Origin: Acidobacteriota bacterium
Lineage (GTDB): Bacteria; Acidobacteriota; Vicinamibacteria; Vicinamibacterales; CAVVIG01
Direction: 5' to 3'
NCBI GenBank assembly: GCA_003222395.1
Contig: QHWB01000034.1
Location: 147,645-211,644 of the forward strand
Length of the DNA: 64,000 nucleotides
How positions within the stretch are numbered: position 1 is the first letter of the stretch; each line of letters begins with the position of its first letter. The position numbers were made by a program, and so were the translations under genes. Below are positions 16,422-63,479 of this stretch, piece after piece. The notes below the pieces were generated by a model. The model searched no databases, was not told the origin of the DNA, and saw nothing but the letters and a program-made list of their open reading frames with translations.

Positions 16422-17249
16422 TTAAAACGTCGGGGGCGTGTTGATCCAGAGCAGGACCGCTTCGTCGCTCGACGGATTGAACCAGCGGTGACCGACGGTG
16501 CTCTCGAACCAGAAGCTGTCGCCCTGCTGCAGCGTGTGGCACTGGAGCTCGTCGAGCCAGATCTCGAGCGTGCCCGACATCATGTAGATGAATTCTTCGC
16601 CCTGATGCGAGTACGAGCCGTCGCTGCCCGCGCCGGGCGCGACGCGAAAGAGCTGACTCTCGAGCTGCCGCGCGCCGACCGAGAGCAGCTCGATGCGGAC
16701 GCCCGACTGCGTCTGAATCGCGCGCCGATCGCGCGGCCGCACCAGATGGTTCGACTGCTTCGGCACGTCGAAGAAATCGAGCACCGTCGACCCGTACGTC
16801 GAGGCGAGGCGCTGCAGCGTCGCGACGGAGGGATTGGCGCGCGAGAGCTCGATCGCGCTGAGAAAGCCCGCGGAGATCTTCGATCGCTTCGCGGCCTCGA
16901 CGACGCCGAGACCGGTCTTCTTTCGCAGCCTTCGCAGCTTGGCGCCGAGATCCGTCGGGCGCGGCCCCTGCGCGTTCCGCGCCGACGCGGTCTTGCCGAG
17001 CACCTGCTTGATGCCGGGCAGGTTCAGCAGCTTGACGTCGCGGAGGTACTTGATTCGCTTGAGGACCTCGAGCAGCTCCGGGCTGTAGAGCCGATACCGG
17101 CCGTTGCTGCGCGCCGGCGCGACCAGCCCGACGCTCTCCCACAGCCGCAGCGTCGACGGACTGACGCCGAGGATCCGCGCGGTTTCACCGACCGTCAGCA
17201 GTCCGATCCGCGATGCGCGTCCGCGCCTGGCCTTCGTGCGACGTCTCAT
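16422..17249 (-). CDS. Transcriptional regulator with MerR-type HTH, XRE-type HTH and a cupin sensor domain (the last two thirds are PuuR-like)
   Basis: 'LTVGETARILGVSPSTLRLWESVGLVAPARSNGRYRLYS' (MerR HTH); 'LGAKLRRLRKKTGLGVVEAAKRSKISAGFLSAIELSRANPSVATLQRLA' (XRE HTH); C-terminal cupin 'HQGEEFIYMMSGTLEIW…GDSFWFESTVGHRW'. I prefer the start at ATG 17249 because it leaves the divergent promoter free. Confidence 0.8.
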   Translation of the reverse strand: MRRRTKARRGRASRIGLLTVGETARILGVSPSTLRLWESVGLVAPARSNGRYRLYSPELLEVLKRIKYLRDVKLLNLPGIKQVLGKTASARNAQGPRPTDLGAKLRRLRKKTGLGVVEAAKRSKISAGFLSAIELSRANPSVATLQRLASTYGSTVLDFFDVPKQSNHLVRPRDRRAIQTQSGVRIELLSVGARQLESQLFRVAPGAGSDGSYSHQGEEFIYMMSGTLEIWLDELQCHTLQQGDSFWFESTVGHRWFNPSSDEAVLLWINTPPTF

Positions 17250-17289
17250 GAACGCGCCGCGATCATAAGGCAATCGCCGCGCCGATGTG

Positions 17290-17318
17290 TTGACAGCCAT
17301 ACATCTTTCTAGTAGAAC
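17290..17318 (+). promoter_or_regulatory. Sigma70-like promoter with a conserved spacer motif (P2), possibly giving a leaderless mRNA
   Basis: TTGACA (17290-17295), a 17-nt spacer 'gccatacatctttctag', then TAGAAC (17313-17318). The ATG at 17327 is only ~8 nt downstream and has no SD. The motif recurs at 30640-30668 and 30572-30601. Confidence 0.45.
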
Positions 17319-17326
17319 CGCGGGCC

Positions 17327-18676
17327 ATGGCCGCCATCAGCATCCGCACGGAGATTCCCGGGCCAAGGTCGCGCGCGCTCATGCGGCGCCGCGCCGCGGC
17401 GGTCCCGAGGGGCGTCGCGCACGCCGCGCCGGTGTTCGCGGCGTCCGCCGACGGCGTCCGCGTGACCGACGTCGACGGCAACGTGTACCTCGACTTCGCC
17501 GGCGGCATCGGCGTGATGAACGTCGGCCACTCGGCGCCGTCGGTGGTGGCCGCCGTCGGCCGGCAGGCCGAACGCCTGACGCATGTCTGCTTCGCCGTGC
17601 AACCGTACGAATCGTACGTGGCCCTGGCCGAACGCCTCGCGGCGCTGACGCCCGGAAGGTTCGCGAAGAAAACGCTGCTCGTCAACAGCGGCGCTGAAGC
17701 GATCGAGAACGCGATCAAGATCGCACGTCATGCGACTGGCCGTCCGGGCGTGCTGTGCTTCGAAGACGCGTTCCACGGGCGCACGCTGCTCGCGCTGTCG
17801 CTCACGAGCAGAGTCGCGCCGTACAAACTCGGGTTCGGTCCGTTCGTGCCGGACGTGGTGCGCGTGCCGTACGCCTATTGCTATCGCTGCGCGTATCACA
17901 CCGAGCATCCGGACTGCGCTGTGGCGTGCGTCGACGCCATCGAGCGGCAGTTCCAGCGCCACGTCGATCCGCGGACGATTGCCGCGGTCGTCGTCGAACC
18001 GGTACTCGGAGAAGGCGGCTTCGTCGTGCCGCCGATCGGCTATCTCTCGAAGCTTGCCGCGCTCTGCCGCCGCCACGGCATCGTCCTCATCGTCGATGAA
18101 GTGCAGACAGGTTTCGGCCGCACCGGTCGCATGTTCGCGTGCGAGCACGACGGCGTCGAGCCCGACCTGCTGGTCGCGGCCAAATCGCTGGCCGCCGGCC
18201 TGCCGCTGGCCGCCGTCATCGGCCGTGCGGAGCTGATGGATTCGCCTGTCGAGGGTGGGCTTGGCGGCACGTACGGCGGCAACCCGATCGCCTGCGCGGC
18301 CGCGCACGCCGTGCTCGATCTCTTCGAGTCGGGAGACCTGCTGCGACGCAGCGAGGCGATTGGCGCGCGCATCGAGGCGCGCGCGCGCGAATGGGCGCGG
18401 AGCTGTCCGCTGGTCGGCGACGTGCGGCGGCGCGGCGCGATGGTCGGCGTCGAGCTCGTCACGAACAGGGAGACGCGCGAGCCCGCCAAGCGCGAGACCG
18501 AAGAAATCATCCGGCTCGCGTGCGAGCGCGGCGTGCTCATGATCGCCGCCGGCACGTTCGGAAACGTCATCCGCTTCCTGACGCCGCTCACGATCACGAA
18601 CGACGAGCTCGACGAGGGGCTCGAGGTGCTGTCCGAGTCGGTCCGGGCGGTGACCTCGCAGCTCGCGGCGCGCTGA
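17327..18676 (+). CDS. gabT: Class-III PLP aminotransferase, 4-aminobutyrate aminotransferase-like
   Basis: 449 aa. 'IRTEIPGPRS', 'DFAGGIGVMNVGHS', 'LVNSGAEAIENAIKIAR', 'IVDEVQTGFGRTG' and the PLP-lysine region 'LLVAAKSLAAG' are typical of GabT. Confidence 0.8.
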   Translation: MAAISIRTEIPGPRSRALMRRRAAAVPRGVAHAAPVFAASADGVRVTDVDGNVYLDFAGGIGVMNVGHSAPSVVAAVGRQAERLTHVCFAVQPYESYVALAERLAALTPGRFAKKTLLVNSGAEAIENAIKIARHATGRPGVLCFEDAFHGRTLLALSLTSRVAPYKLGFGPFVPDVVRVPYAYCYRCAYHTEHPDCAVACVDAIERQFQRHVDPRTIAAVVVEPVLGEGGFVVPPIGYLSKLAALCRRHGIVLIVDEVQTGFGRTGRMFACEHDGVEPDLLVAAKSLAAGLPLAAVIGRAELMDSPVEGGLGGTYGGNPIACAAAHAVLDLFESGDLLRRSEAIGARIEARAREWARSCPLVGDVRRRGAMVGVELVTNRETREPAKRETEEIIRLACERGVLMIAAGTFGNVIRFLTPLTITNDELDEGLEVLSESVRAVTSQLAAR

Positions 18677-18707
18677 ACGCGCGCGCCAGACCTCCGCTCC
18701 CTTCGTC

Positions 18708-20732
18708 ATGTGGTACTTCCGCAAGCTCCCGGACGGCCTGACGGTTCTGCAGACGCGCCCCGAGCACGCGCAGCAGCTCGAGGAGCTGCAGCGCACCTGC
18801 TTTCCAACGCTTGCGGATGCCGAGCGCTTCAAGGCGGCCCACTATCTGAAACACATCGATCTGTTTCCCGACGGACAGTTCGTCGTCCTCGACGGCGACC
18901 GCGTTGTCGGCGCGACGACGACGCTTCGACTGCATTTCGATTTCGACCACGTCGACCACACGTTCGCGGATCTGATTCAGGGAGGCTGGCTCTCGTCTCA
19001 CGAGCCCGGTGGCGACTGGCTGTACGGCGCCGACGTCGGCATCGATCCTTCTTATCGCCGCCGCGGTCTGGCGACGGCGCTCTACGCGGCGCGGCAGGAG
19101 ACCGTCTGGCGATTGCGGCTGAGAGGGCAGGTCACCGCCGGCATGATTCGCGACTATGGCGCCGTGAAGGATCGCATGTCCCCGGACGACTACTACAGAG
19201 GCGTCGTCGAGCGCCGACTCACCGACTCCACGCTCTCGATGCAGCTCGGCGTCGGCTTCGAGCCGCGAGCGCTGCTCGCCAACTACCTCAACGATCCGGT
19301 GTGCGACAACTACAGCGTGCTGCTCGTCCTCCCGGCCGAGCAAGAGGTGCGAGGCGCATCGCGGAAACACGCCATGTCCTACATCCGTTTGAACACGGAG
19401 ATTCCCGGATCACGCGCGCGCGATCTCATCGCCCGTCGAACGGCCGCCGCTCCGGCGGGTCTCGGCCGCGCGACCGACGTGGCCGTCGAGCGCGCCGATG
19501 GCGGCCTCGTCTTCGATGTGGACGGAAACACGCTCATCGATCTGGCCGGCGGCATCGGCATGCTGGCCGTCGGTCACTCGCCTGCAGAAGTGGTGAAGGC
19601 GATTCAGCAGCAGGCGGCGAAGTACATCCATCCCTGCGCGCTGGTCGCGACTTACGAGCCGTACGTGCAGCTCGCGGAGCTGCTGAACGAGATCACACCG
19701 GGCGCCTTCAGCAAGAAAACGATCCTGGCCAACAGCGGCGCCGAAGCGGTCGAGAACGCGGTCAAGCTCGCGCGCAAGTACACGGGCCGTCCTTCGGTGA
19801 TTTGCTTCGAGGGCGGCTATCACGGGCGGACGCTGCTGACGCTGAGCCTGACGAGCAAGTACAGCTTGTTCAAGAGCGGGTTCGGTCCGTTCGCGCCCGA
19901 GATCGTGCGCCTGCCCGTTCCGCACGTGTACCGCACGCCGCCGGGAATGACCGAGGACGCATACGTCGATTTCGGCATCCGCCAACTCGAGCACGCGTTC
20001 GTCGCGCAGGTGGATCCGAAAGCCGTCGCCGCCGTCATCATCGAGCCGGTCCAGGGCGAGGCGGGCTTCATTCCGGTGCCGCCGCGGTTTCTCGCGCGCA
20101 TCCGCGAGCTGTGCACCGAACACGGCATCGTGATGATCGCCGACGAAGTCCAATGCGGCATGGGGCGCACCGGCCGCCTATTCGCGATCGAACACTACGA
20201 CCTCGTTCCGGATCTCATCACGATCGCGAAGTCGCTGGGCGCAGGGATGCCAATCGCCGCGGCGACCGGTCGCGCCGAGATCATGGACGCGGCGCATCTC
20301 GGCGGCCTCGGCAGCACGTACGGCGGCAGCCCGATCGCCTGCGCGGCGGCGATCGAGGCGATCGGCATCATCCGCCGGCCCGAGTTCCTCGCGCACGCGC
20401 GCGCGCTCGGCGACGTGATGCGCGAGGTGATGAACGCGTGGACGATGAAATACCCGATCGTCGGAGACGTGCGCGGCCTCGGCCCGATGATGGTGGCCGA
20501 GTTCGTCGCCGACCGCAGATCGAAGAAGCCGGCGACGCCGGACGAAACGCTTCAGATCGTGCGCGAAGCAGTCGCCCGCGGCGTCATCCTGATGCGCGCG
20601 GGACTCTACAGCAACTGCGTCCGTTTCCTTCCGCCGCTGGTGATGCCCGAAGACATGCTGCGCGAAGGCCTCGAGGTCGTCGGCGGCGCCATCGAGGCCG
20701 TGTCGCTCCGCCACGCGGGCACGCCGGCATGA
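18708..20732 (+). CDS. Fusion protein: N-terminal GNAT N-acetyltransferase domain (~225 aa) plus a class-III aminotransferase
   Basis: One uninterrupted 674-codon frame. The GNAT acetyl-CoA motif 'YRRRGLATALYAAR' lies in the first third. From 'MSYIRLNTEIPGSRARDL' onward it parallels the upstream aminotransferase ('IADEVQCGMGRTG', 'LITIAKSLGAG'). Confidence 0.8.
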   Translation: MWYFRKLPDGLTVLQTRPEHAQQLEELQRTCFPTLADAERFKAAHYLKHIDLFPDGQFVVLDGDRVVGATTTLRLHFDFDHVDHTFADLIQGGWLSSHEPGGDWLYGADVGIDPSYRRRGLATALYAARQETVWRLRLRGQVTAGMIRDYGAVKDRMSPDDYYRGVVERRLTDSTLSMQLGVGFEPRALLANYLNDPVCDNYSVLLVLPAEQEVRGASRKHAMSYIRLNTEIPGSRARDLIARRTAAAPAGLGRATDVAVERADGGLVFDVDGNTLIDLAGGIGMLAVGHSPAEVVKAIQQQAAKYIHPCALVATYEPYVQLAELLNEITPGAFSKKTILANSGAEAVENAVKLARKYTGRPSVICFEGGYHGRTLLTLSLTSKYSLFKSGFGPFAPEIVRLPVPHVYRTPPGMTEDAYVDFGIRQLEHAFVAQVDPKAVAAVIIEPVQGEAGFIPVPPRFLARIRELCTEHGIVMIADEVQCGMGRTGRLFAIEHYDLVPDLITIAKSLGAGMPIAAATGRAEIMDAAHLGGLGSTYGGSPIACAAAIEAIGIIRRPEFLAHARALGDVMREVMNAWTMKYPIVGDVRGLGPMMVAEFVADRRSKKPATPDETLQIVREAVARGVILMRAGLYSNCVRFLPPLVMPEDMLREGLEVVGGAIEAVSLRHAGTPA

Positions 20733-22318
20733 GCGCTCAGCCCGCGGCCGATCTCGTTCTGTACAACGGCAACGTCATCACCCTCGGCCAGCCCGCGGTC
20801 GCGCGCGCGGTCGCCGTGCGCGGGGGCCGCATCGTCTGCGTCGGGCGCGCTGAAGACGTGCTGAACGGGGCCGGCGCGAAGGCGCACCGGATCGATCTCG
20901 GCGGCCGAACGCTCATCCCGGGGCTGAACGACGCGCACGCGCACATCTGGAAGATCGGCCAGCTGCTGACGACGATGCTCGATTTGCGGCGCGTCGGCAG
21001 CATGGAGGAGTTGGTGTCGCGCGTCGCGGCGCACGGTTGCGCGCTGCCGCCGGGCGCGTGGCTGCTCGGGCGCGGCTACAACGAGGCGGCGATGCGCGAA
21101 CGGCGGATGCCGACGCGCGCCGATCTCGATCGCGCCGACCCGAATCGACCAATCGTCCTCACACGCACCTGCGGTCATATCTGCGCCCTCAACAGCGCGG
21201 CGATGAGCCGCGCCCGCATCGACGCGGCCACGGACACGCCGGAGGGCGGCGTGATCGATCGCGACGATCGCGGCGAGCCGACCGGCGTGCTGCGCGAAAC
21301 GGCGATAGGCCTGATCAACCGCGCGATGCCCGCGCCGGAACGCGGCGAGTACGAGCGAATGATCGTCGCCGCGCTTGACCATCAGCTGTCGCTCGGCATC
21401 ACCTCGTCCGCGGACTGCGGCGTGCGGCCGCAGCTCGTCGACGTGTATCGCGCGATGGACGCGAAAGGCGCGCTGCCATCGCGAGTGAACGTCATGCCGC
21501 TCCGGCGCGTCGACGGCGTAGCGTCTGCGGTGCCGCTGCCGGAGCGATTCGTCTCCGATCGGCTGCGCGTCGACACCGTGAAGTTCCTTGCGGACGGCGG
21601 GCTGAGCGGCGCGACGGCGGCGCTGAGCATGCCGTACCGCCACACCCATTCCAGCGGCGTGCTGCGATTCGCGAACGGCGAGCTCCACGAGCTGTGCGCG
21701 GAGTCGCATCGCGCGGGCTGGCGGATTGCGACGCACGCAATCGGCGACGTCGCAATCGATCAGGTGCTCGACGTGTACGAACGGCTCGGCACCCATCCGC
21801 GCCGGATCGCCCACCGCATCGAGCACTTCGGGCTGCCCGATGCGCGGCAGCTCACGCGTGCGAAGGCGCTCGGCGTGATCGCCGCGCCGCAAGCCATCTT
21901 CATCCACGAACTCGGGCGGAATTTTCGCCAGTACCTGCCCGACGCGCTGCTCCCGCGCGCCTATCCGATTCGCGCGATGATCGATGCCGGCATCCCGGTG
22001 GCGCTGTCGTCGGACGCGCCGGTCGTCGAAGACGACAACCCGCTCGCCGGAATGATGGCGGCGGTGACGCGCATCGACGGCGACGGAGAGCTGATCGCGC
22101 CGTCGCAGGCGATTACGACGCGCGAAGCGCTGTACGGATACACGATGGGCGGCGCCATCGCGACCGGAGACGAAGCCAACCGCGGCAGCATCGACGTCGG
22201 GAAGTGGGCCGACTTTGCGGTGCTTTCCGGCAACCCGCTCGCCGAGTCACCCGGAGCGCTCACGCGCCTGACGGTCGAGATGTCACTGGTCGGCGGCCGC
22301 GTGGTCTTCGAACGATGA
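20729..22318 (+). CDS. Amidohydrolase-3 family (YtcJ-like) metallohydrolase
   Basis: Real start is ATG 20729 (ATGA overlap with the previous stop). '[13 protein letters not shown]', '[11 protein letters not shown]', 'IATHAIGD'. Only the last 529 codons of ORF 18710..22318 are coding. Confidence 0.8.
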
Positions 22319-23679
22319 GCGTGCAGCAGCCGCTCGACATCCCGCGGACGCTCGGCCGGCGGGACCTCGTCCTGCTGAAGATCGTCGCGATCGTCAACAT
22401 TAATAATGTCCCTCCCGTTGCCGTCTACGGCTGGGCATCCCTGGGACTGTGGATGCTCGCGTTCATCACCTTCTTCGTGCCGGAAGCGATTGCCGTGCTG
22501 ACGTTGTCGCGCCGCTATCCGGGAGAGGGCGGGATCTACCTCTGGACGCGCAAAGAGTTCGGCGAAGCGCACGGGTTCCTGTCGGGCTGGTGCTATTGGA
22601 CCAACAATCTGTTTTACGTGCCGGTGCTGCTCGTCTACATGACGGGCGTCTTTGCGTTTGCCGGCGGCGAGGCGCGGGCGGCCGCTCTCGTCAATCAGCG
22701 ATCGTTCGTCGCGGTCGTGTCGTTCGCGTGGCTCGCCGTCATCGCCGTGGCGAACATCCGCGGCCTCGCGGTCGGCAAATGGATTCAGAACGTTGGCGGC
22801 TTCAGCGCGTTTCTGAGCGTCGGACTCGTGCTCGCGGCCGCGGCGGTGATCGGATTCAGCGGCGCGGGCGCCGAGGCGCCTGCGATCGCGCACGCGACGT
22901 GGGAGATGACGACGAGCTTCGCCGTCATGTGCAACGCGCTGGTCGGCATCGAGCTGGCGTCGACGATGGGCGACGAGATCCGCGATCCGGAACATGACCT
23001 GAAGCCTGCCATCGCGACGGCGGGCGTCGTGTCGATCGCCTCGTACCTTCTCGTCACGGGCGCGGTTCTGACGCTCGTGCCGGTCGAGCGCGTCGGCGTG
23101 ATACAAGGCGTGATGCAGGCTGTCGCGGCCGGCGCCGACGCCGCGCGGCAGCGATGGATGATCGCGCCGCTCGCGATCGTGATGGGTCTCGCGACGGGGG
23201 GCGCTGCTTCGGCCTGGTTCGCCGGATCGTCGCGCATCCCGTTCGTCGCCGGCCTGACGAGTGCGCTGCCGCCGGCGCTCGGACGCATCCACCCGCGCTG
23301 GCACTCGCCGCACATCGCCTTGACGGCGTGCGCGCTGATGGCTGGCCTGTTCACGGCGTTTTCGCTGACGGGATCGACCGTCAACGAGGCGTATCAGGTG
23401 CTGTTGAAGGCGGCGGTGGTCATTCAGCTGATTCCGTTCACTTATCTCTTCCTTGCGCTTGCCAGACTCGCCGGGGTGGGCATCTTGTCGCGCGCCGCCG
23501 GCTTCGTCGGCCTCGGCGCCACCATCGTCGGCCTCGGCGCCGCGTTCCTGCCGACCGCGGACGTATCGAGCGTCGTCCTGTTCGAGACGAAAATGATCCT
23601 CGGCGTCATCGGACCGACCGCGATCGGATGGTTTCTGTTCAAGCGGGCACAGCGCGATCAGGCTGAGGTTCCAGCATGA
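22315..23679 (+). CDS. APC-superfamily amino acid/polyamine permease
   Basis: ATG 22315 (ATGA overlap). About 12 hydrophobic segments. The N-terminal 'RTLGRRDLVLLKIVAIVNINN' is typical of APC permeases. Confidence 0.85.
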   Translation: MSVQQPLDIPRTLGRRDLVLLKIVAIVNINNVPPVAVYGWASLGLWMLAFITFFVPEAIAVLTLSRRYPGEGGIYLWTRKEFGEAHGFLSGWCYWTNNLFYVPVLLVYMTGVFAFAGGEARAAALVNQRSFVAVVSFAWLAVIAVANIRGLAVGKWIQNVGGFSAFLSVGLVLAAAAVIGFSGAGAEAPAIAHATWEMTTSFAVMCNALVGIELASTMGDEIRDPEHDLKPAIATAGVVSIASYLLVTGAVLTLVPVERVGVIQGVMQAVAAGADAARQRWMIAPLAIVMGLATGGAASAWFAGSSRIPFVAGLTSALPPALGRIHPRWHSPHIALTACALMAGLFTAFSLTGSTVNEAYQVLLKAAVVIQLIPFTYLFLALARLAGVGILSRAAGFVGLGATIVGLGAAFLPTADVSSVVLFETKMILGVIGPTAIGWFLFKRAQRDQAEVPA

Positions 23680-33600: not shown

Positions 33601-33636
33601 CGGATCGATAGCGCCCTCACGGCGGCGAGACCGCGT

Positions 33637-51117: not shown

Positions 51118-51186
51118 GGAGACACCGAGAAAATCAGACGGCGCGATCGCAAAGCGCGCAGAGAGTGAACGCCGATCGGTTCGGCG

Positions 51187-51275
51187 GCCGGCCTGCGCAG
51201 CAGGCCGGCATGCGCGGCCGGATCGGACGGAAACGCGAGCCAGGGTGGATCCTGACGGCTCGCGTTTCCGTCCGA
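51187..51275 (-). terminator. Two strong GC-rich hairpins between the tandem sulfatase-fold/TPR genes; candidate terminator(s)
   Basis: GCCGGCCTGC-gca-GCAGGCCGGC (51187-51209, 10-bp stem), plus a perfect 19-bp stem at 51223-51241 / 51257-51275 with a 15-nt loop containing GGATCC. No U-tract. Confidence 0.4.
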
Positions 51276-51348
51276 CTCCGGTCGCGCGCGGCGCTCCGCG
51301 CCGCCGCCGAACCGAGGCGTCTCTGCACCTCTGTGTCTCCGTGGTTGG

Positions 51349-53700: not shown

Positions 53701-53879
53701 GGCGACATTGTAGCGAATGCGAAAATCACGCACTTTCCTGATTGCCCGACCTTCGCACGCCCGGTAGGATCTGGGGGCAACCGAACGACCCAATCGCCGA
53801 GTAGCGCGGAGCCGCTCGGTGGATCTACGCGGCACTGAGAGAGCCAATCGCCGATAAACGCCGAGCGGCCGAAGGCCGC

Positions 53880-53922
53880 GAGGTACAGGTCGCGGGGGTG
53901 GGGCCCCGCGACAAATAAGAAA
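53880..53922. repeat. Half copy (E) of the ~90-nt repeat: second hairpin plus A-rich tail only
   Basis: 'GTCGCGGGGgtggggCCCCGCGACaaataagaaaa', a 9-bp stem at 53889-53912. It lies immediately upstream of the SD 'AAGGAG' and ATG 53933. Confidence 0.5.
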
Positions 53923-53932
53923 AGGAGACACC

Positions 53933-54337
53933 ATGCGACGGCTGCGGATCCTCATCGCGTCGAGTGCGATTCTGGCTATCGGAACGTCGAGCTTCGCGGG
54001 CGATTTTCAGGACAGCGTGGCGAAAGCGGCGCGCGACGCCGCCGGGCAGCAGACCGAGCAGCGATCCGGGAACCGCAACCCGTACCTCTGGCCGGGCGCG
54101 GCGCTCTTCGTCGCCGGCATGTCCCTGGCGGTGTACGGCTTCCTGCACACGAGCGGCGGCGAATTCGTGTCGGGCGAAGTGTCGAAGGAATCGAAGACAG
54201 GACTCGGCGGCGCGGGGCTCGCCGTCGCCGCAGCCGGCGGAGCACTGTTGTACTGCGGAACGCTGCGCGCGCGTCACGCGCCGTCGATTACAGTCGGTCG
54301 CGGACGCCTCACCGTCGCGAAGCAGGTTTCGTGGTAA
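53933..54337 (+). CDS. Small secreted/membrane protein of unknown function, paralogue of 40697..41104 (qhp-linked copy 2)
   Basis: 134 aa. 'SSFA|GDFQDSVAKAA', Gly-rich segments 'GAALFVAGMSLAVYGF' and 'GGAGLAVAAAGGALLYCG', C-terminal 'LTVAKQVSW'. Collinear with copy 1. Confidence 0.7.
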   Translation: MRRLRILIASSAILAIGTSSFAGDFQDSVAKAARDAAGQQTEQRSGNRNPYLWPGAALFVAGMSLAVYGFLHTSGGEFVSGEVSKESKTGLGGAGLAVAAAGGALLYCGTLRARHAPSITVGRGRLTVAKQVSW

Positions 54338-54340
54338 TCC

Positions 54341-56404: not shown

Positions 56405-58147
56405 ATGGTGAGACAAGCGGCCCTCGGATTGATGGTCGTCGCGGCGCTCGCCGCCGCGAAGCCGGCATACGCCCAAACGACGCCGAAAGACGAAGGCATC
56501 CCGGTCGACAACGCGCTCGTGCGATCGAAGTGCGGCAGCTGCCATCGCGCCGACGACAAGGGACGGATGACGCGCATCTCGTACCGCCGCGCGACGATGG
56601 AGAACTGGGAACGCACGATCCGGCGCATGGTCACGCTGAACCACGTGGCGCTCGAGCCCGCCGACGCGCGCAGCATCCTCAAGTACCTCGCCGATCGCCA
56701 GGGCCTCGCGCCGGAAGAAGTGCGCCCGATCGAATTCGAAGCGGAACGGCGCACGATCGAGTACGCCTACAAAGCCGACGAGACGACGGCCAATCTCTGC
56801 TCGTCGTGCCATTCGGTGTCGCGCGTGATGAGCGAGCGCCGCACGAAGGAGGAATGGGACCTGCTGATTGCGATGCATCGCGGCTATTACCCGCTCGTCG
56901 ACAATCAGCCGCTGAACGGTCCGCAGGGTTTCCGCCGCACGCGTCCGATCGAAACCGAGCCGGGGCCCGACGGCCGTCCGCCCGACAACCGCCACCCGGT
57001 CGATCGCGCGCTCGAGCACCTGACGAAAACCTATCCGCTGCAGACGTCGGAATGGTCCGCGTGGTCGGCCGCGATGCAGCCGCCGAAGCTGGCGGGACGA
57101 TGGGCCGTCGTCGGATCGCAGCTGGGGAAGGGCGCCATCTACGGTCAGGTGACGGTTGCGGCCGACGCGGGCGCGCCCGATTCCTTTACGACTGAGATTC
57201 GCTATACCGTCGCCCGCACCGGCGAATCGGTCTCGCGCAGCGGGAAGGCGCTCGTCTACACCGGGTACCAGTGGCGCGGACGCGGCAACGACTGGCGCGA
57301 GGTGCTCTTCGTCGAACGCGACTGGAAAGAGATGTGGGGGCGCTGGTTCAGCGGCGCCTACGACGAGACCGGCATCGACGTGAAGCTGACGCGCCTCTCG
57401 AGCGATCCCGTCGTCTTCGGCACGAGCGCGACGGCCCTGAAGAGGGGGTCGACAGGGTCGACCGCGTCGTCGGCGCAGAACGTCAAGATCTACGGCGCGA
57501 ATCTGCCGGCGACCGTTCGACCCGAGGACATCGGGCTCGGACAAGGCGTGAAAGTCGCGCGCGTGATCAGCGCGAGGCCGGAGGAGATCGCGATCGACGT
57601 CGACGTCGACGCATCAGCCTTGATCGGCGCCCGCGATGTGTCGGTAGCCGGCACCGTGAAGCCGGCGGTGCTGGTCGTCTACGACAGGATCGACGCCGTG
57701 AAGGTGGAGCCGGTGGCCGGCATGGCGCGCGTCGGCGGCGCCGTGTTTCCGAAGCAGCTCCAGCAGTTCGAAGCGATCGGCATCAACAACGGACCCGATG
57801 GCAAGCTTGGCACTGCCGACGATCTGAACCTCGGGCTCGTCAACGTGAAGTGGTCGCTCGAGGAGTATCCCGCGACCTTCGGAGACGACGACATTCAGTT
57901 CGTCGGCAAACTCGATGAGAGCGGCCTCTTCACGCCGAATGTCGACGGCCCGAACCCGAAGCGGAGCGGGAATCGCAACAACGTCGGCGACGTGTGGGTC
58001 GTCGCGGAGCTGCTTGATGCTCCCGCTACGCCGCCGGCGCCGGGATCGCCGCCGTCGATGTCGGTGCAGCCGCTGCGCGGACGCGCGCATCTGCTCGTCA
58101 CCGTGCCGCTCTACATGAACTGGTTCACCGAGGACACCAAACAATGA
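56405..58147 (+). CDS. qhpA: Quinohemoprotein amine dehydrogenase alpha subunit, copy 2
   Basis: Signal 'MVRQAALGLMVVAALAAAKPAYAQ'; heme sites 'KCGSCH' and 'LCSSCH'; 'MTRISYRRATMENWERTIRRM'. Collinear with copy 1. Confidence 0.85.
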   Translation: MVRQAALGLMVVAALAAAKPAYAQTTPKDEGIPVDNALVRSKCGSCHRADDKGRMTRISYRRATMENWERTIRRMVTLNHVALEPADARSILKYLADRQGLAPEEVRPIEFEAERRTIEYAYKADETTANLCSSCHSVSRVMSERRTKEEWDLLIAMHRGYYPLVDNQPLNGPQGFRRTRPIETEPGPDGRPPDNRHPVDRALEHLTKTYPLQTSEWSAWSAAMQPPKLAGRWAVVGSQLGKGAIYGQVTVAADAGAPDSFTTEIRYTVARTGESVSRSGKALVYTGYQWRGRGNDWREVLFVERDWKEMWGRWFSGAYDETGIDVKLTRLSSDPVVFGTSATALKRGSTGSTASSAQNVKIYGANLPATVRPEDIGLGQGVKVARVISARPEEIAIDVDVDASALIGARDVSVAGTVKPAVLVVYDRIDAVKVEPVAGMARVGGAVFPKQLQQFEAIGINNGPDGKLGTADDLNLGLVNVKWSLEEYPATFGDDDIQFVGKLDESGLFTPNVDGPNPKRSGNRNNVGDVWVVAELLDAPATPPAPGSPPSMSVQPLRGRAHLLVTVPLYMNWFTEDTKQ

Positions 58148-59574
58148 CGGCAATGTGGGCGGCGCGCGAACATCATCGTTTCGAGGCGGCGGGCAGACCG
58201 TTCGTGTATCTGGTCCCCAGCGCGGCGATCTTCGAGCTCGACGAAGCGAGCGACTCGGTGCTTCGAACGCTCAACGAGCGTCCGCGCACGCGCGAGGAAT
58301 TGACGGAGGCGTTCGGCGACGCGGAGCCCGCGATCGCCGAGCTCGCGCGCGTGCAGGCGATCGCTGAGGTCAGCGTCCCTCCGCCCGCGACCCCCAAGGT
58401 CATCCCGCTCGCGCCGTTTCCATTGACCACAATGGTCCTCAACGTCACGAACCAGTGCAACTTGAGCTGCACGTATTGCTACGAGTACGGCGAGGACAAG
58501 ATCGTCGACACCGAGAACGGCCGGCAGCCGAAGTTCATGACCGAGGAGACGGCGCGACAGAGCGTCGATTTCCTGCTCAAGGAATCGGGCAAGGTCGCGC
58601 ACATCACGTTCTTCGGCGGCGAGACGCTGCTGAACTTTCCGGTGCTGCGGAAGACGATTGCCTACGCGCGCCGCCGCGCCGCGGAAGAGGGCAAGGACGT
58701 CGACTTCAGCATGACGACGAACGCGACGCTCCTGAAGCCGGACATCATCGAGTTCCTCGCGGAGAACCGGATCGGCGTCACGATTTCGATCGACGGCCCG
58801 CGCGAGGTGCAGGACAAGTTCCGCGTCTTCAGCAACGGCGCCGGCAGCTACGACGTCGTGGCGCCGAAGATTCGCGAGCTGCTGAAGCGTCACCGCAGCC
58901 GGCCGATCGGCGCGCGGGTGACGCTGACCTCCGCGAACCTGGACGTGAAGCGGATCTACCGTCACCTGACGGAGGAGATCGGATTCTGGGAAGTCGGGTT
59001 CGCGCCGGTGACCACGTCGGCGTCGCGCGGACACGCGATTTCCGACGACGGATACGATCGGATGCTGTCGCAGTTTCGAGAGCTCGCGTACGAGTTCCTC
59101 GAGGCGTCCGTCGCGAACCGCCACCACGGATTCTCGAACGTGAAGGAAACGCTCGAGGAGCTGCACAAGGGCGTCAGCAAGGCGTATCCCTGCGGCGCGG
59201 GGCTCGGACTGCTCGGGGTGGCGACCGGCGGCGACGTCGCGCTCTGTCATCGGTTCGCTGGATCGGATGCGCACAAAGTTGGCAGCGTGACGACCGGCGT
59301 CGATCGTCAGGCGCAGGCCGCGTTTCTCGAGAAGCATCACATCGCGAACAAGACCGACTGCAGCGTCTGCTGGGCGCGGCCGCTGTGTTCCGGCGGCTGC
59401 TACCACGAGGCGCACACGCGGTACGGCGACACCGGTCACGCGAACCTGCACTACTGCGAGTGGATTCGCGGCTGGACCGGCGTCTGCCTGCAGATCTACG
59501 GGGAGCTCTCAGTTCGTAATCCAGCGTTCTTGGCGCAGTTCGACGACCAGGATATGAAGGAGACGGTGTCGTGA
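58144..59574 (+). CDS. qhpD: Radical SAM/SPASM maturase QhpD, copy 2
   Basis: ATGA overlap with qhpA2. 'NVTNQCNLSCTYCYEYG'; SPASM region 'CSVCWARPLCSGGCYHEA'. Confidence 0.85.
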   Translation: MTAMWAAREHHRFEAAGRPFVYLVPSAAIFELDEASDSVLRTLNERPRTREELTEAFGDAEPAIAELARVQAIAEVSVPPPATPKVIPLAPFPLTTMVLNVTNQCNLSCTYCYEYGEDKIVDTENGRQPKFMTEETARQSVDFLLKESGKVAHITFFGGETLLNFPVLRKTIAYARRRAAEEGKDVDFSMTTNATLLKPDIIEFLAENRIGVTISIDGPREVQDKFRVFSNGAGSYDVVAPKIRELLKRHRSRPIGARVTLTSANLDVKRIYRHLTEEIGFWEVGFAPVTTSASRGHAISDDGYDRMLSQFRELAYEFLEASVANRHHGFSNVKETLEELHKGVSKAYPCGAGLGLLGVATGGDVALCHRFAGSDAHKVGSVTTGVDRQAQAAFLEKHHIANKTDCSVCWARPLCSGGCYHEAHTRYGDTGHANLHYCEWIRGWTGVCLQIYGELSVRNPAFLAQFDDQDMKETVS

Positions 59575-59900
59575 TTCACTTGAAACCGATCAATCGCAAG
59601 GCCGTTCGCGTCGAGCAGGCGACTGACCACGACGTCGTCGCGCTGCAGCGGACGGCGCTCCCGCAGAACCCGCACTTCCCGCTCGGCTGCTCGCTGATCT
59701 TCTCGCCCGGTTGGGAAGCCGATCGCACGGGCGGAACCGCGGGACTGTGCCAGCCGGTCGAGCGCGATCTCTTCGACTGCCACATCGGCTGTTACTGGCC
59801 GGCGCAGGTGCCCGACCAGTTGAACCACGCACCCGACTGGACGGCGAAATGCGCCGCGGCCCAGAAGGACTGGCGGAAGATCGATCTCATTTTCCCGTAG
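59571..59900 (+). CDS. qhpC: Quinohemoprotein amine dehydrogenase gamma subunit precursor, copy 2
   Basis: The GTG start overlaps the qhpD2 stop (GTGA). The core 'GCSLIFSPGWEADRTGGTAGLCQPVERDLFDCHIGCYWPAQVPD' has the same eight-residue spacing as copy 1. Confidence 0.85.
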   Translation: MIHLKPINRKAVRVEQATDHDVVALQRTALPQNPHFPLGCSLIFSPGWEADRTGGTAGLCQPVERDLFDCHIGCYWPAQVPDQLNHAPDWTAKCAAAQKDWRKIDLIFP

Positions 59901-59905: not shown

Positions 59906-61018
59906 ATGCGCAAACTTGCATTCGCATTCGCACTCGCGCTCGCGGCGTGCGCCATCGTTCATGCCGCCGACAGGAAGGTCAGCGCCGGCAACGGCACGTT
60001 GATCATCGGCGCGTATCCGAAGCAGTTCTGGATTATCGACGAGGCGACGGAGAAGATCGTCGGCACGATCCCGTACCAGTCGGGCATTCCCCGGCGCACT
60101 TCGATCTCGCGCGACCGCAAGCGCTTCTACACCATCGAAGCGCAGATGGAGAAGGTCGAGGTCGTCGACATCGCGGCGCGCAGGACGATCGACACCTTCA
60201 CGCTCAGCGAGGGCAACAAGAAGGTCCGCATTCGAAGCCTCGAGCCGGATCCGCTGAATCGCTTCGTCGTCATGGTGATCGCGTCGGCGACGAAGCTGAT
60301 CGATCGCTTCGATATCGGCAACCCGACGCTGGTCCAGTACGACTTGCAGCAGAAGAAGGTCGTGCGCACGATTCCGTGGCCGAACAACGAGGAGCGCCAG
60401 AACGCGAACATCCTCTTCTCGCCGGACGGCAAGCTGATGTACCTGTTCACCGAACAGGACGTCCTGATCTACGAAACCAATACGTTCACACAGGTCGACA
60501 AGTGGGAACTGTCCAAGCCGATTGAGGAAGGTTTCGGCCGCCTCGAGTTCGGACCGCGCGACGTGATGAACGACGAGCCGGGCTTCTACACCGCCATCTT
60601 CAACGTGTCCGATCCGGTCCAGCATCGGCGGACCATGGGCATCGGCCGCGTGAACCTGGCGGCGAAGACCGTCGATTTCTACACGCTCGGTCCGTCGACG
60701 CCGGTCAGCTTCACGCTGGCGCCCGATCGCAAGAGCGGCTTCGGCTTGTTCGATGACATCGGACGCTACGAATTCTGGAAGTTCGATCTCGAGCGCCACC
60801 GGCTCGCGAACCGCGTCGAGTTCAAGGGGCGGCCGCGCATGGGATTGAAAACGAGCTCCAACGGCAAGGTGCTCTACATCTACGTGGCGGGGAACACGAT
60901 CGATCTCTACGACGCCGACACATACCAGTATCTGCGCACGATCACGCTCGACGGCGACATGACGACGGAGCTGTTCGTCTTCAATACGCCGCCGTCAACG
61001 ACTACGCCATCGCAATGA
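59906..61018 (+). CDS. qhpB: Quinohemoprotein amine dehydrogenase beta subunit, copy 2
   Basis: ATG 59906; signal 'MRKLAFAFALALAACAIVHA'. Collinear with copy 1 (…GNGTLIIGAYPKQFWIIDEATEKIVGTI…). Confidence 0.75.
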   Translation: MRKLAFAFALALAACAIVHAADRKVSAGNGTLIIGAYPKQFWIIDEATEKIVGTIPYQSGIPRRTSISRDRKRFYTIEAQMEKVEVVDIAARRTIDTFTLSEGNKKVRIRSLEPDPLNRFVVMVIASATKLIDRFDIGNPTLVQYDLQQKKVVRTIPWPNNEERQNANILFSPDGKLMYLFTEQDVLIYETNTFTQVDKWELSKPIEEGFGRLEFGPRDVMNDEPGFYTAIFNVSDPVQHRRTMGIGRVNLAAKTVDFYTLGPSTPVSFTLAPDRKSGFGLFDDIGRYEFWKFDLERHRLANRVEFKGRPRMGLKTSSNGKVLYIYVAGNTIDLYDADTYQYLRTITLDGDMTTELFVFNTPPSTTTPSQ

Positions 61019-62814
61019 GCGCCCGCGGCCCGAGCGAGGCGCCGGAGGGAAGCCCGGCGAAGCCGGGCCGCCGAGTGAGCGCGAGCGGGGGTGGGGCCCC
61101 GCGAGCAGTGATTAATGTTGACACCAGCATCCGACGGGCGCTCCGGTTCATCGTCCCCTACTGGCGACGGCTGGCGCTCGTCCTCGCGCTGAGCGCGCTC
61201 AGCACGGCGCTCTCGCTGTACCTGCCGCTCCTCTCTCGCGATTTCTTCGATCGCGCCCTGATCGGCCGCGATCTCGGGACGCTCGTCCGCGTCGTCTCGC
61301 TGTTCGCGGCCGTCAGCGTCGCCAGCTTCGTCGTGAACGTCGTGAGCGGAATGCGATACACGCGCGTGTCGGCCGACATCCTGTTCGACATGCGGCTCGA
61401 GCTGTACCGCCACCTGCAGCGGCTCTCCCCGCGGTTCTACGTGCGCACGCGGATGGGCGACATCATGTCGCGCATCAACAACGACGTCGGCGAGATTCAG
61501 CGGATCGCCGCCGAGACGGCGCTCGCGTGGGTCGGCAACGTGCTGTTCCTCGCCGGAACGATCGCGATGCTCGCGTGGCTCGACGTCCGCCTGTTCGTCC
61601 TCACCGTCGCGACGACGCCGTTCGGCATCTGGGCGCTGGTGCGCTATCGCACGCGGCTCGAAGTCGAAATCGGAAAACTGCGCCAGCGCAGCGCCGACAT
61701 CGGCAGCTTCCTCATCGAGACGCTCCAGTCGGTGAAGCTCGTCGTCACGTCGAACGCGCAGGAGCGCGAGGTCGGACGCTTCCGCGAGCGGAACGCGGCG
61801 TTCATCGACTCGCTGATGTCGATGCAGCTCCTCTCGTACTTGTCCGGCGGGCTGCCGGGCCTCGTTCTTTCCGCCGGAACAGGCGCCGTGTTCGTATACG
61901 GAGGCCTCCGCGTCATAAACGGATCGATCACCGTCGGCACCTTCGTCGCGTTCATGGCGTACCAGATGCGCTTCCTGCCGCCGCTGCAGGCGCTGATGGG
62001 CATGTACGCGAACCTCGCGACCGTTCGGGTCTCCCTGCGCAGGGTCGCGCAGATTCTCGACGAACCGGTCGACGTCATCGAAGCGGCCGACGCGGTCGAT
62101 CTGCCGTCGGTCCGGGGCGACGTCGAATTCGACGAGGTCACCGTATCGTTCGGCCGCGGCGGGCCGGTGCTGGAGCGATTCTCGTTCTCCGTGCGCGCCG
62201 GAGAGACGCTTGCCATCGTCGGCCCGAGCGGCAGCGGAAAGTCCACGATTGCGGATCTGCTGCTGCGGCTCATCGATCCGGACGCCGGCGCCGTGCGCCT
62301 CGACGGTCGCGATCTCCGAACGGTGCGGCTCGCCGATCTTCGCCGCCGCGTGGCACTGGTCGAGCAGGAGCCGTGCATCCTGCACGCGACGATCGCCGAG
62401 AACATCCGATACGCGCGTCCCGGCGCGTCGGACGAAGAGGTGTCGGCCGCGGCCGATCGAGCGGCGCTCGCGCCGTTCATCGAATCGCTGCCGGAGAAGT
62501 TCGCGACCGTGGTCGGAGAGCGCGGCATGGCGCTGTCGGCCGGCGAACGTCAGCGGATCGCCATCGCCCGCGCGCTGCTGGCCGATCCTGACGTTCTCGT
62601 GCTCGACGAACCGAGCGCCGCACTCGATCCGACCTCCGAGCGCCACATCGCCGATGGCTACGAGTCGGTGATGCGCGGCCGCACCACCATCGTCATCACA
62701 CACCGCCTCGACCTCGCGCGCAGGGCCGACCGCGTCATCGAGGTCCGATCCGAGTCGGACCAGGGACGAACCACGGCCAGACCGTGGTTCGGCCACGATC
62801 TGTCTCGAGTCTGA
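61015..62814 (+). CDS. qhpF: ABC exporter (fused 6-TM permease and ATPase), candidate QhpF
   Basis: Walker A 'GPSGSGKST', signature 'LSAGERQRIAIARAL', Walker B 'VLVLDEPSAALD'. The start is uncertain. ATG 61015 gives an ATGA overlap with qhpB2. In-frame GTG 61108 would instead leave a repeat-derived hairpin in the 5' UTR. Confidence 0.75.
   Translation: MSARGPSEAPEGSPAKPGRRVSASGGGAPRAVINVDTSIRRALRFIVPYWRRLALVLALSALSTALSLYLPLLSRDFFDRALIGRDLGTLVRVVSLFAAVSVASFVVNVVSGMRYTRVSADILFDMRLELYRHLQRLSPRFYVRTRMGDIMSRINNDVGEIQRIAAETALAWVGNVLFLAGTIAMLAWLDVRLFVLTVATTPFGIWALVRYRTRLEVEIGKLRQRSADIGSFLIETLQSVKLVVTSNAQEREVGRFRERNAAFIDSLMSMQLLSYLSGGLPGLVLSAGTGAVFVYGGLRVINGSITVGTFVAFMAYQMRFLPPLQALMGMYANLATVRVSLRRVAQILDEPVDVIEAADAVDLPSVRGDVEFDEVTVSFGRGGPVLERFSFSVRAGETLAIVGPSGSGKSTIADLLLRLIDPDAGAVRLDGRDLRTVRLADLRRRVALVEQEPCILHATIAENIRYARPGASDEEVSAAADRAALAPFIESLPEKFATVVGERGMALSAGERQRIAIARALLADPDVLVLDEPSAALDPTSERHIADGYESVMRGRTTIVITHRLDLARRADRVIEVRSESDQGRTTARPWFGHDLSRV
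61072..61112. repeat. Half copy (F) of the ~90-nt repeat at the 5' end of qhpF
   Basis: 'gagcgcgagcgggggtggggccccgcgagcagtg' shares the core 'gggggtggggccccgcg' with copies D and E. The stem is weaker (6 bp). Confidence 0.4.
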
Positions 62815-62819
62815 TCCTG

Positions 62820-63479
62820 ATGCGCGTCAGGGTTGCGATCATCGACAGCGGCGTTCACGCGGCGCATCCTCACGTCGGCGGCGTCGGCGGCGGCGTCGGC
62901 ATCGACGACGAGGGGCGCGAGCACGGCGATTACACCGATCGCCTCGGTCACGGCACCGCGGTCGCCGCGGCGATCAAGGAAAAAGCGCCGGACGCAGAGC
63001 TCTTCGCGGTGAAGGTGTTCGATCGGACGCTGTCGACGCGCGTCGCGAACCTGATTCACGCCATCGACTGGGCGGCGCGGAATCAGATGCACGTCGCGAA
63101 CCTCAGTCTCGGGACTGCGCGGCCCGAGCACGAGACGATTCTCCGCGAGGCCGTTGACCGCGCACGAACCCGCGGCGTCGTCATCGTTGCCGCGCGGGAT
63201 GACGGCGGCGTGCGATGGCTGCCGGGGAGCCTGCGTGGCGTGATTTCAGTTCAGCTCGACTGGGCGTGTCCGCGCGACGAATATCGCGTCGTGGAGATCG
63301 AGGGGGAGACCGTCTTTCGCGCGTCCGGCTACCCGCGCGAGATTCCCGGTGTGCCGCCCGACCGAAATCTCAACGGGATCAGCTTCGCCGTTGCCAACAT
63401 GACCGGGTTCGTCGCCAGAGCGCGCGCTGCCGCTTCGGATGAGTGGATGCAGGCGCTCGTCACCGTGGGTGTGCGATGA
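62820..63479 (+). CDS. qhpE: Small subtilisin-like serine protease, candidate QhpE (leader peptidase for the gamma subunit)
   Basis: 219 aa from ATG 62820. Catalytic-triad contexts are 'VAIIDSGV' (Asp), 'LGHGTAVAAAI' (His) and 'NGISFAVANMTG' (Ser). Lies directly after qhpF. Confidence 0.7.
   Translation: MRVRVAIIDSGVHAAHPHVGGVGGGVGIDDEGREHGDYTDRLGHGTAVAAAIKEKAPDAELFAVKVFDRTLSTRVANLIHAIDWAARNQMHVANLSLGTARPEHETILREAVDRARTRGVVIVAARDDGGVRWLPGSLRGVISVQLDWACPRDEYRVVEIEGETVFRASGYPREIPGVPPDRNLNGISFAVANMTGFVARARAAASDEWMQALVTVGVR

Follow-up and report, generated by a model that had tools for sequence, protein, structure and literature searches.

The described systems that come closest to the gene cluster discussed here are of four kinds. 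The spermidine dehydrogenase SpdH of Pseudomonas aeruginosa (PA3713; PDB 7D9F-7D9J) converts spermidine to 1,3-diaminopropane and 4-aminobutanal, and spermine to spermidine and 3-aminopropanal (PMC9397018), and His54 and His562 are the two axial ligands of its surface haem b (PMC12564564). The qhp operon of Paracoccus denitrificans and Pseudomonas putida (qhpADCBEFGR) carries the structural and maturation genes of a quinohaemoprotein amine dehydrogenase (QHNDH). The third is the Puu pathway with its gamma-glutamylation enzymes PuuA to PuuD, the regulator PuuR and the aminotransferase GabT, and the fourth comprises loci centred on TonB-dependent transporters, namely polysaccharide utilisation loci (PULs) of the SusC/RagA type and CUT loci. 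Here, we analyse a window of 64 kb, a whole stretch of contig QHWB01000034.1 from an uncultured, Vicinamibacterales-like Acidobacteriota bacterium, in which positions 16422-63479 hold genes related to all four. Proteins identical to its own are encoded on soil metagenome contigs, such as ENA ERZ28573619 scaffold_9 (169 kb). We favour, with some reserve, the view that this span serves the catabolism of polyamines and other primary amines as one chromosomal supercluster, made of shuffleable, operon-sized modules centred on SpdH-family dehydrogenases.

Genes were called throughout the window from third-position GC bias and open reading frames, and the inventory was checked by Pfam, NCBIfam and PDB sequence searches. 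A preliminary description of this DNA had listed two class III aminotransferases, two flavoproteins exported by the twin-arginine translocation (Tat) system, a pyrroloquinoline quinone (PQQ) dehydrogenase, two QHNDHs with maturation genes, four barrels resembling TonB-dependent receptors (TBDR1 to TBDR4), one permease of the APC family and one regulator. The searches returned every one of these in its place, and the concentration of amine-catabolic functions within about 47 kb is real. To this list, we add an Amidohydro_3 gene, the assignment of qhpG, two sulfatase-like genes with tetratricopeptide repeats (TPR), a TPR membrane protein and two proteins of 134-135 residues. Of the four amine cofactor chemistries originally counted, pyridoxal phosphate (PLP), flavin adenine dinucleotide (FAD) and cysteine tryptophylquinone (CTQ)/haem stand, but the count was overstated by the PQQ enzyme: PQQ dehydrogenases act on alcohols, aldoses and aldehydes, and are not known as amine oxidases. 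Likewise, a mostly periplasmic location holds for the oxidative enzymes: SpdH1 and SpdH2 have Tat signals, and the N-termini of the PQQ dehydrogenase, QhpA and QhpB are of the Sec type (as are those of the barrels and of the 135-residue protein hyp135). The PLP enzymes, the amidohydrolase, QhpD, QhpG and QhpE are cytoplasmic.

The two Tat-signal flavoproteins, SpdH1 (23676-25643, plus strand) and SpdH2 (34248-36287, plus strand), are, as judged by sequence comparison, homologues of the SpdH-type polyamine (spermidine) dehydrogenases containing FAD and haem b. Both align over their full length with the P. aeruginosa enzyme (PDB 7D9I), SpdH1 with E = 2.4e-147 (residues 12-649 against 2-619) and SpdH2 with E = 3.2e-131, and share with it the FAD Rossmann motif and, in the printed alignment, the N-terminal twin-arginine motif (S/T)RRDFLNG. 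The equivalents of His54 (EVSH or EVAH) and His562 (NRWPHGY) are kept in both, these haem ligands being the extent to which active-site conservation was compared. SpdH1 and SpdH2 are 50% identical to each other. Compared with the P. aeruginosa system, the window holds two paralogues, and loci of relatives up to three; moreover, the genes of the window and its relatives lie in operons with TBDR-like genes, aminotransferases, a permease or qhpG.

Support for a functional cluster also comes from related genomes. Starting from SpdH2 homologues, we collected the surrounding loci of 80 genomes, each from a different species (loci, here and below, are designated L followed by a number), mapped the window proteins onto them by tblastn, and made counts on the 50 SpdH loci of at least 15 kb, considering features within 10 kb on either side of the SpdH gene. 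At least one other module was present in 45 of the 50 loci and at least two in 34. A further SpdH paralogue was found in 33 loci, with at least three SpdH genes in ten. A TBDR-like gene occurred in 31 loci and was the immediate neighbour of an SpdH gene in 21. The PQQ dehydrogenase (19/50), a class III aminotransferase (18/50), the regulator (12/50) and qhpADCB (3/50) followed in decreasing order. Clustering against scattering in related genomes had been put forward as the test of the locus. Since the same families recur beside SpdH homologues in 45 of the 50 loci, the clustering goes beyond chance, and the comparison favours a functional clustering of shuffled modules rather than a fixed island.

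The arrangement of these modules varies widely. In L009, the order is class III aminotransferase, acetyltransferase-aminotransferase fusion, amidohydrolase, APC permease, SpdH1, a third SpdH, SpdH2, TBDR4, two sulfatase-like TPR genes, hyp134b (a paralogue of hyp135) and the TPR membrane protein, whereas L007 shows regulator, class III aminotransferase, PQQ dehydrogenase, TBDR1, TBDR2, SpdH2 and TBDR4, and L014 contains every module in permuted order. L167 and L168 share the order TBDR-like gene, two sulfatase-like TPR genes, hypothetical gene, TPR gene, an orphan qhpC, regulator, fusion, amidohydrolase, APC permease and SpdH, and L167 lies about 15 kb from a PQQ dehydrogenase-TBDR1-SpdH-SpdH2 segment (L062) on the same contig. 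A TBDR-like gene, qhpADCB and SpdH follow one another in L023, L046 and L074, which are labelled Bryobacterales, Bryobacteraceae or Terriglobia. Orthologues of TBDR2 and SpdH2 are co-directional and separated by 18-100 nt, with TBDR2 upstream, in eight genomes of several orders.

Such permutation could also be expected if independent operons (for GABA or amino acid catabolism, a quinoprotein alcohol dehydrogenase, QHNDH and generic transporters) had merely come to lie side by side at a rearrangement-prone site, without any integrated pathway. Module order differs in every relative examined, repeats resembling repetitive extragenic palindromes (REP) occur at module junctions, unrelated sulfatase-like and TPR genes are interspersed, and QHNDH is linked to SpdH in only three of the 50 loci. 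In L171, the same left flank as in the window leads directly into a QHNDH cluster, with no SpdH or aminotransferase module, and for this reason, we regard the window site as a flexible locus of varying module content. However, the same families stay together despite the shuffling in Vicinamibacterales, Bryobacterales and Terriglobia. Within the window, the genes for the cytoplasmic aminotransferases, the permease and the periplasmic SpdH1 are translationally coupled in one operon, SpdH2 overlaps qhpG, and the products of one enzyme are documented substrates of the next (PMC9397018, PMC9213253). We hold such a chance juxtaposition to be improbable, and retain the supercluster of modules as the preferred reading.

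The first of these modules is an operon on the plus strand. It begins with a GabT-type class III aminotransferase, predicted to be cytoplasmic (17327-18676; Pfam Aminotran_3; TIGR00700 GABAtrnsam, 566 bits for a cutoff of 506), and continues with a 674-residue protein in which an N-terminal GNAT acetyltransferase is fused to a second class III aminotransferase (18708-20732; Pfam), a metal-dependent hydrolase of the Amidohydro_3 family (20729-22318; Pfam), an APC-family permease (22321-23679; Pfam AA_permease_2) and SpdH1. The permease is distantly GadC-like, that is, related to the glutamate/GABA antiporter family, the NCBIfam GadC models scoring far under their cutoffs. From each gene of this operon to the next, the spacing is 31 nt, then an overlap of 4 nt, then 2 nt and finally another overlap of 4 nt. 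Start/stop overlaps of the GTGA or ATGA type occur at 20729-20732 between the fusion and the amidohydrolase (ATGA), at 23676-23679 between the permease and SpdH1, and at 36284-36287 between SpdH2 and qhpG (GTGA). The GNAT-aminotransferase fusion is represented by more than 120 clusters at a minimum of 78% identity, nearly all of 672-689 residues, from soil Acidobacteria and under generic names only. In two relatives (L167, 16962-19135; L168, 16968-19052), an Amidohydro_3 protein comes after the SpdH1 orthologue, with a cytochrome c domain (Cytochrome_CBB3) either fused to it or encoded next, and a cupin protein last; this cytochrome, which the window lacks, is a candidate electron acceptor for SpdH.

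Divergent from this operon is the regulator gene (16422-17300, minus strand), the product of which combines by Pfam a MerR helix-turn-helix, an XRE helix-turn-helix (HTH_3/HTH_31) and a cupin domain; translation probably begins inside this frame, near 17252. In its C-terminal half, the protein resembles PuuR (NCBIfam PuuR, 62 bits, under the cutoff of 211), and orthologues adjoin aminotransferase or SpdH modules in 12 of the 50 loci, as well as in L167 and L168. The locus thus shares with the Puu pathway a GabT aminotransferase at equivalog level, the XRE and cupin architecture of PuuR in one half of its regulator and a permease of the GABA family. Unlike the Puu pathway, it has none of the gamma-glutamylation enzymes PuuA to PuuD, and contains the GNAT-aminotransferase fusion and the Amidohydro_3 protein instead, whereas the regulator differs from PuuR by its extra MerR domain.

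The other large group of amine-oxidising genes in the span codes for two QHNDHs, all on the plus strand. The first set consists of qhpA1 for the dihaem alpha subunit (41109-42899; four QHNDH alpha Pfam domains), qhpD1 for the radical-SAM/SPASM thioether maturase (42896-44374; CxxxCxxC; TIGR03906, 556 bits for a cutoff of 453), qhpC1 for the precursor of the CTQ-carrying gamma subunit (44414-44746; PDB 1JMX_G, 3e-21) and qhpB1 for the putative beta subunit, probably a divergent beta-propeller, which is recognised by its conserved operon position (44788-45942). The second, identified by Pfam and motifs, comprises qhpA2 (56405-58147), qhpD2 (58144-59574), qhpC2 (59571-59900) and qhpB2 (59906-61018). 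It is followed by qhpF for the ABC exporter of the cross-linked gamma subunit (61015-62814; Pfam ABC_membrane and ABC_tran; the gene follows qhpB in many loci) and by qhpE for the subtilisin-like leader peptidase (62820-63479; NF049966, 174 bits for a cutoff of 165). Alignment of QhpC1 with 1JMX_G and 1JJU_C indicates that C7, E16, C27, D33, C37, C41, W43 and D49 are all kept, and QhpC2 has the same cross-link and CTQ residues. QhpA1 and QhpA2 each contain PF09098, PF14930, PF09099 and PF09100 together with two CxxCH motifs, QhpA1 matching PDB 1JMX_A at 1.6e-62, and QhpD has a C-terminal Cys cluster in addition to CxxxCxxC. QhpB1 is highly divergent (TIGR03907, 57 bits for a cutoff of 223; PDB 1JMX_B, 1.5e-4), with a conserved place after qhpC. 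Between the two sets, protein identity is 51-73%.

The FAD monooxygenase QhpG, which dihydroxylates the CTQ tryptophan, is assigned to 36284-37723 (plus strand) on the basis of NF049967 and conserved context. The NF049967 score of 235.9 bits falls just below the cutoff of 240, and the best PDB matches are halogenases of the CmlS type (CmlS, 2e-39), with QhpG itself (7CTQ, 2.3e-19) next. CmlS is also the nearest structural neighbour of the authentic QhpG, in which a Trp181/Trp183 pair is conserved (PMC7876137), and the window protein carries WAWSVP at this motif. Because orthologues (37-55% identity) immediately precede qhpA in at least 12 metagenome loci, and in view of the near-cutoff score and the CmlS-like neighbourhood of authentic QhpG, we accept this predicted protein as QhpG. 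Its Pfam Trp_halogenase match is real, but a tryptophan halogenase was rejected, QhpG being the best NCBIfam match, the gene position being upstream of qhpA and authentic QhpG being itself CmlS-like. The GTG start at 36284 overlaps the stop codon of SpdH2, and the start in the public annotation (36470) is 186 nt late and would drop the GxGxxG FAD-binding motif.

Like the known qhp systems, the window has a full complement of structural and maturation genes, with qhpB and qhpG as probable members. The gamma subunit retains its three Cys-Asp/Glu thioether partners as well as the CTQ pair Cys37-Trp43, and the dihaem alpha subunit and the radical-SAM/SPASM QhpD are likewise shared. It differs from them in having two diverged qhpADCB sets for single copies of qhpG, qhpF and qhpE, in the distance of qhpG from qhpA1 (3.4 kb) and from qhpA2 (18.7 kb), in the insertion of TBDR3 and hyp135, a 135-residue protein with no Pfam or NCBIfam match, between qhpG and qhpA1, in the very divergent QhpB and in the absence of an AraC-type QhpR from the window. 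A second set of 80 metagenome loci, gathered around qhpC, showed qhpG-A-D-C-B-F-E as the commonest order. The qhpG-TBDR3-hyp135-qhpADCB variant recurs in the closer relatives of the window and also in unrelated flanks (L088, L089, L092, L171, L173-L175). In L167 (8702-9034) and L168 (8723-9055), a 110-residue qhpC stands alone between the TPR membrane protein gene and the regulator gene, with no qhpA, qhpD or qhpB nearby; it may be what is left of a qhp operon that was deleted, or else code for a peptide acting on its own.

The four TBDR-like proteins all contain CarboxypepD_reg together with OMP_b-brl_4 (PF25183) and TonB_dep_Rec_b-barrel (PF00593) domains. TBDR1 (27779-30544, minus strand; Pfam Plug E = 0.0059) shares its strand with the PQQ dehydrogenase gene, which begins 11 nt further downstream, TBDR2 (30694-33537, plus strand) precedes SpdH2, TBDR3 (37852-40611, plus strand; Plug 1.7e-5) is located between qhpG and qhpA1, and TBDR4 (46310-49222, plus strand; Plug 3.5e-6), a paralogue of TBDR3 (58% amino acid identity), follows the first qhp set. 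The Plug matches of TBDR1, TBDR3 and TBDR4 are weak. The C-terminal residue is Phe in TBDR1 and Trp in TBDR2 and TBDR3. None of the four has a PDB match at the sequence level, and no tonB or exbBD gene was found in the window. An AlphaFold2 model of TBDR2, built on a 31-sequence alignment, reached a mean predicted local distance difference test (pLDDT) of 62.8, with 70-90 in the barrel, and the top 50 Foldseek hits in the PDB were all TonB-dependent transporters (best E = 5e-18), led by FusA, YddB, FptA, RagA and SusC.

The preliminary description had counted four such barrels, and there are indeed four genes, but the assembly contains TBDR4 in truncated form. Compared with the sibling contigs L169 and L170, which come from other samples, the window lacks 72 nt at 49063/49064; the terminal beta-strand and the last 19 codons (PSKYVYPRRLQLGARIKF*) are lost with them, and the reading frame continues into the antisense of the next gene. 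The intact protein, of 936 residues and ending in ...GARIKF, is encoded in L169 and L170 (6070-8880, minus strand). The deletion abuts a GGGGCGGAC-N6-GTCCGCCCC hairpin at 49070-49093, and represents either a strain-level pseudogene or an assembly error. A second copy of this hairpin, at 2308-2331, is situated inside a 1065-residue BNR/sortilin reading frame (1472-4669, minus strand), which, for that reason, may be two genes or carry an inserted element.

The PQQ dehydrogenase (25731-27767, minus strand; Pfam PQQ, 579 bits) is a beta-propeller enzyme of the glucose/quinate/alcohol family without a membrane anchor. TIGR03074 scores 351 bits, under its cutoff, and quinoprotein alcohol dehydrogenases are matched in the PDB at 1e-33. 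Its gene and TBDR1 are convergent to the aminotransferase-SpdH1 operon.

It is with regard to the cargo of the barrels that the preferred reading meets its main competitor, according to which the TBDR-like proteins and SpdH paralogues act on larger amine compounds, such as siderophores with a polyamine backbone, peptides or alkaloid-like secondary amines, or TBDR1 imports PQQ. The substrates of TonB-dependent transporters are as a rule bulky or in short supply, the nearest structures to the TBDR2 model are, by small margins, the protein and peptide importers FusA, YddB and RagA, and in many genomes, at least three diverged SpdH types per locus (46-55% identity) suggest diversified substrates. 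As for PQQ, TBDR1 and the dehydrogenase gene, separated by 11 nt, remain paired in L007 and L062, and many Acidobacteria have quinoproteins without PQQ synthesis and scavenge the cofactor (PMC12124388). Against this, neither PqqU/YncD nor any other solved transporter is matched by TBDR1 at the sequence level, the permease, the GabT-type aminotransferase and the PuuR-like regulator suit small intermediates of the GABA or diamine type, and SpdH1 and SpdH2 keep the complete haem and FAD architecture of SpdH. On balance, we consider larger substrates or PQQ as the cargo rather unlikely. TBDR1 was rejected as a PqqU orthologue, there being no PDB sequence match at E <= 0.01 though PqqU/YncD structures were among those searched; two of these structures (6v81 and 9c4o) came up with the TBDR2 model, but merely for their general fold.

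If the span is indeed a supercluster for polyamines and primary amines, catabolism might proceed as follows. The TBDR-like proteins, to judge from their conserved adjacency to the enzymes, would carry polyamines or amine-bearing compounds across the outer membrane and so feed the periplasmic reactions. SpdH1 and SpdH2, after Tat export, would then cleave the C-N bonds of secondary amines in the periplasm, as does, by analogy, the P. aeruginosa enzyme, and the two QHNDHs, using CTQ and haem c, would deaminate the resulting primary amines and diamines there and free ammonium. QHNDHs have been reported to oxidise 1,3-diaminopropane, which GabT transaminates to 3-aminopropanal (PMC9213253). Both QHNDHs could be matured by the two QhpD copies together with one shared set of QhpG, QhpF and QhpE. 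Since the linkage of the PQQ dehydrogenase with SpdH is conserved in 19 of the 50 loci, we suggest, speculatively, that this periplasmic enzyme may oxidise an aldehyde or alcohol product. The APC permease would import GABA-like or beta-alanine-like products, and the GabT-type aminotransferase, the GNAT-aminotransferase fusion and the amidohydrolase would complete catabolism in the cytoplasm, possibly by a route with acetyl protection, much as the Puu pathway uses gamma-glutamylation. Control of the system may be exerted by the PuuR-like MerR/XRE/cupin regulator.

Several points weigh against this reading. The substrates of SpdH and QHNDH are extrapolated from proteobacterial enzymes of about 40-50% identity, no aldehyde dehydrogenase gene was detected in the window, and the adjacency of QHNDH and SpdH in three of the 50 loci denotes a lineage-restricted link. 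With regard to transport, TBDR2 has no Pfam Plug match and the putative plug of its model (residues 117-267) has a pLDDT below 30, TBDR4 is the truncated protein mentioned above, TBDR-like genes are numerous in Acidobacteria, so that some adjacency is expected by chance, and small polyamines normally need no TonB-dependent transporter. Finally, about 7 kb, or some 15% of the span (49093-56284), is taken up by sulfatase-like and TPR envelope proteins with no evident role in amine metabolism.

An origin of the span as a horizontally acquired genomic island was also considered. The gene content at the site varies among related genomes, as exemplified by L171 compared with the window and by L009 and L007. 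However, the tetranucleotide profile of 16422-63479 correlates with that of the left flank at r = 0.994 and G+C at third codon positions is uniform (0.80-0.88 in all genes), a comparison of composition with the flank having been called for. In the window, whose G+C content is 61-71%, the lower overall G+C of the barrel genes is an effect of amino acid composition. No tRNA or tmRNA was found in the window, no gene called there has a Pfam integrase or transposase match, and no Rfam family, riboswitches included, was detected at gathering thresholds. Close homologues are all acidobacterial, the closest genomes for SpdH2 being metagenome-assembled genomes (MAGs) labelled Vicinamibacterales or Acidobacteria (80-85% identity), and the internal paralogues are old (43-73% amino acid identity). 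As the composition matches the flank, and tRNA and integrase genes are absent, recent horizontal acquisition is not indicated, in line with the caution already expressed in the preliminary description, and an island of this kind seems to us very improbable.

A pseudogene remnant had been proposed at the left edge of the span, but could not be confirmed: 16058-16421 matches no family, and six-frame translation, Pfam and tblastx against 175 loci gave nothing specific, the tblastx matches being low-complexity noise. Further left, 11592-16057 contains an amino acid ABC importer (an ATPase and a fused binding-protein/permease), an NAD_binding_2 protein resembling 3-hydroxyisobutyrate dehydrogenases and imine reductases, and an Amidohydro_1 protein. 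L171 shares the fused binding-protein/permease and NAD_binding_2 dehydrogenase genes (123-2547), with its QHNDH cluster directly next to them, and on account of this synteny, the functional region may reach left of 16422.

Among the remaining genes, those for hyp135 (40697-41104, plus strand; no Pfam or NCBIfam match) and its paralogue hyp134b (53933-54337, plus strand; 43% amino acid identity by alignment) belong to a family of 488 homologues of 131-140 residues, all unannotated and devoid of Pfam domains. These proteins have a signal peptide, contain two hydrophobic segments rich in Gly and end in an invariant Trp. Genes of this family always lie just downstream of a TBDR3/4-type gene (in the window, L088, L089, L092, L159, L168 and L171-L175), and often just upstream of qhpA or of the divergent TPR membrane protein gene; in the window, hyp135 ends 4 nt before qhpA1. 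The latter membrane protein (54341-56284, minus strand; Pfam) is polytopic with C-terminal TPR repeats, and its start codon is uncertain, the protein being called with 647 residues in L169. The two sulfatase-fold TPR proteins (49093-51117 and 51349-53955, minus strand; Pfam), the first of which has a lipoprotein-like N-terminal signal, were rejected as type I sulfatases, their motifs being T-R-P-S-H and T-L-P-A-H and not the C/S-x-P-x-R formylglycine motif. They are predicted from these motifs to be Thr-nucleophile members of the alkaline phosphatase superfamily, similar to LtaS and EptA. Their block is conserved beside TBDR4 in L009, L167 and L168.

Palindromic intergenic repeats resembling REP or miniature inverted-repeat transposable elements occupy 33621-34187. 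These elements of about 80 nt, up to 87% complementary between copies, are found inside and outside the span; interspersed repeats had been described as a feature of the span and are present, but they are not specific to it, with copies at 633-709 and 11395-11574 and, for the hairpin next to the TBDR4 deletion, at 2308-2331. The elements of about 80 nt fill the 710-nt spacer that parts TBDR2 from SpdH2 in the window, a spacer which is secondary, because the orthologues are 18-100 nt apart in the eight genomes already mentioned. A different, 35-nt unit is present in three near-perfect tandem copies between qhpB1 and TBDR4 (45998-46102), with a single 71%-identical copy at 1651-1685.

The enzyme families encountered here are all known. 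In Acidobacteria, QHNDH has been noted only as a marker gene in MAG surveys (10.1101/445817; 10.1101/2021.04.09.439258), and the literature searched contained no account of SpdH paralogue arrays in Acidobacteriota, of TBDR-SpdH operons, of a qhp operon with an embedded TBDR-like gene and 135-residue partner, or of the GNAT-aminotransferase fusion module. The packaging of known enzymes with transporter genes, which recurs in relatives, thus seems undescribed. With PULs and other transporter-centred loci, it shares the co-transcription of TBDR-like genes with periplasmic catabolic enzymes and a local regulator; it differs from them in lacking a SusD-like partner in the window, in harbouring amine dehydrogenases rather than glycoside hydrolases, and in that transport is putative. 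We can tentatively propose, as an idea that is possible rather than probable, that Acidobacteriota possess "amine utilisation loci" of PUL-like logic, in which TBDRs, some with a 135-residue partner, would feed periplasmic SpdH and QHNDH arrays that liberate ammonium and donate electrons directly to respiration, scarce soil amines serving both as nitrogen source and as periplasmic electron donor.

These Qhp maturases have been reported to be single-turnover (PMC7876137), and one QhpG, QhpE and QhpF set may serve two QHNDH paralogues despite this mode of action. The locus and its relatives also offer many diverged SpdH (FAD and haem b) and QHNDH enzymes, both families being of interest for biosensors and biocatalysis, and testable candidates for the uptake of polyamines across the outer membrane, a role not so far established for TonB-dependent transporters. 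In soils, Vicinamibacterales and other Acidobacteriota rank with the most abundant bacteria, and what they use as nitrogen and carbon sources is poorly defined; a periplasmic toolkit, conserved and open to expansion, for the oxidation of polyamines and primary amines would, if true, mark amine scavenging as a niche trait of these organisms.

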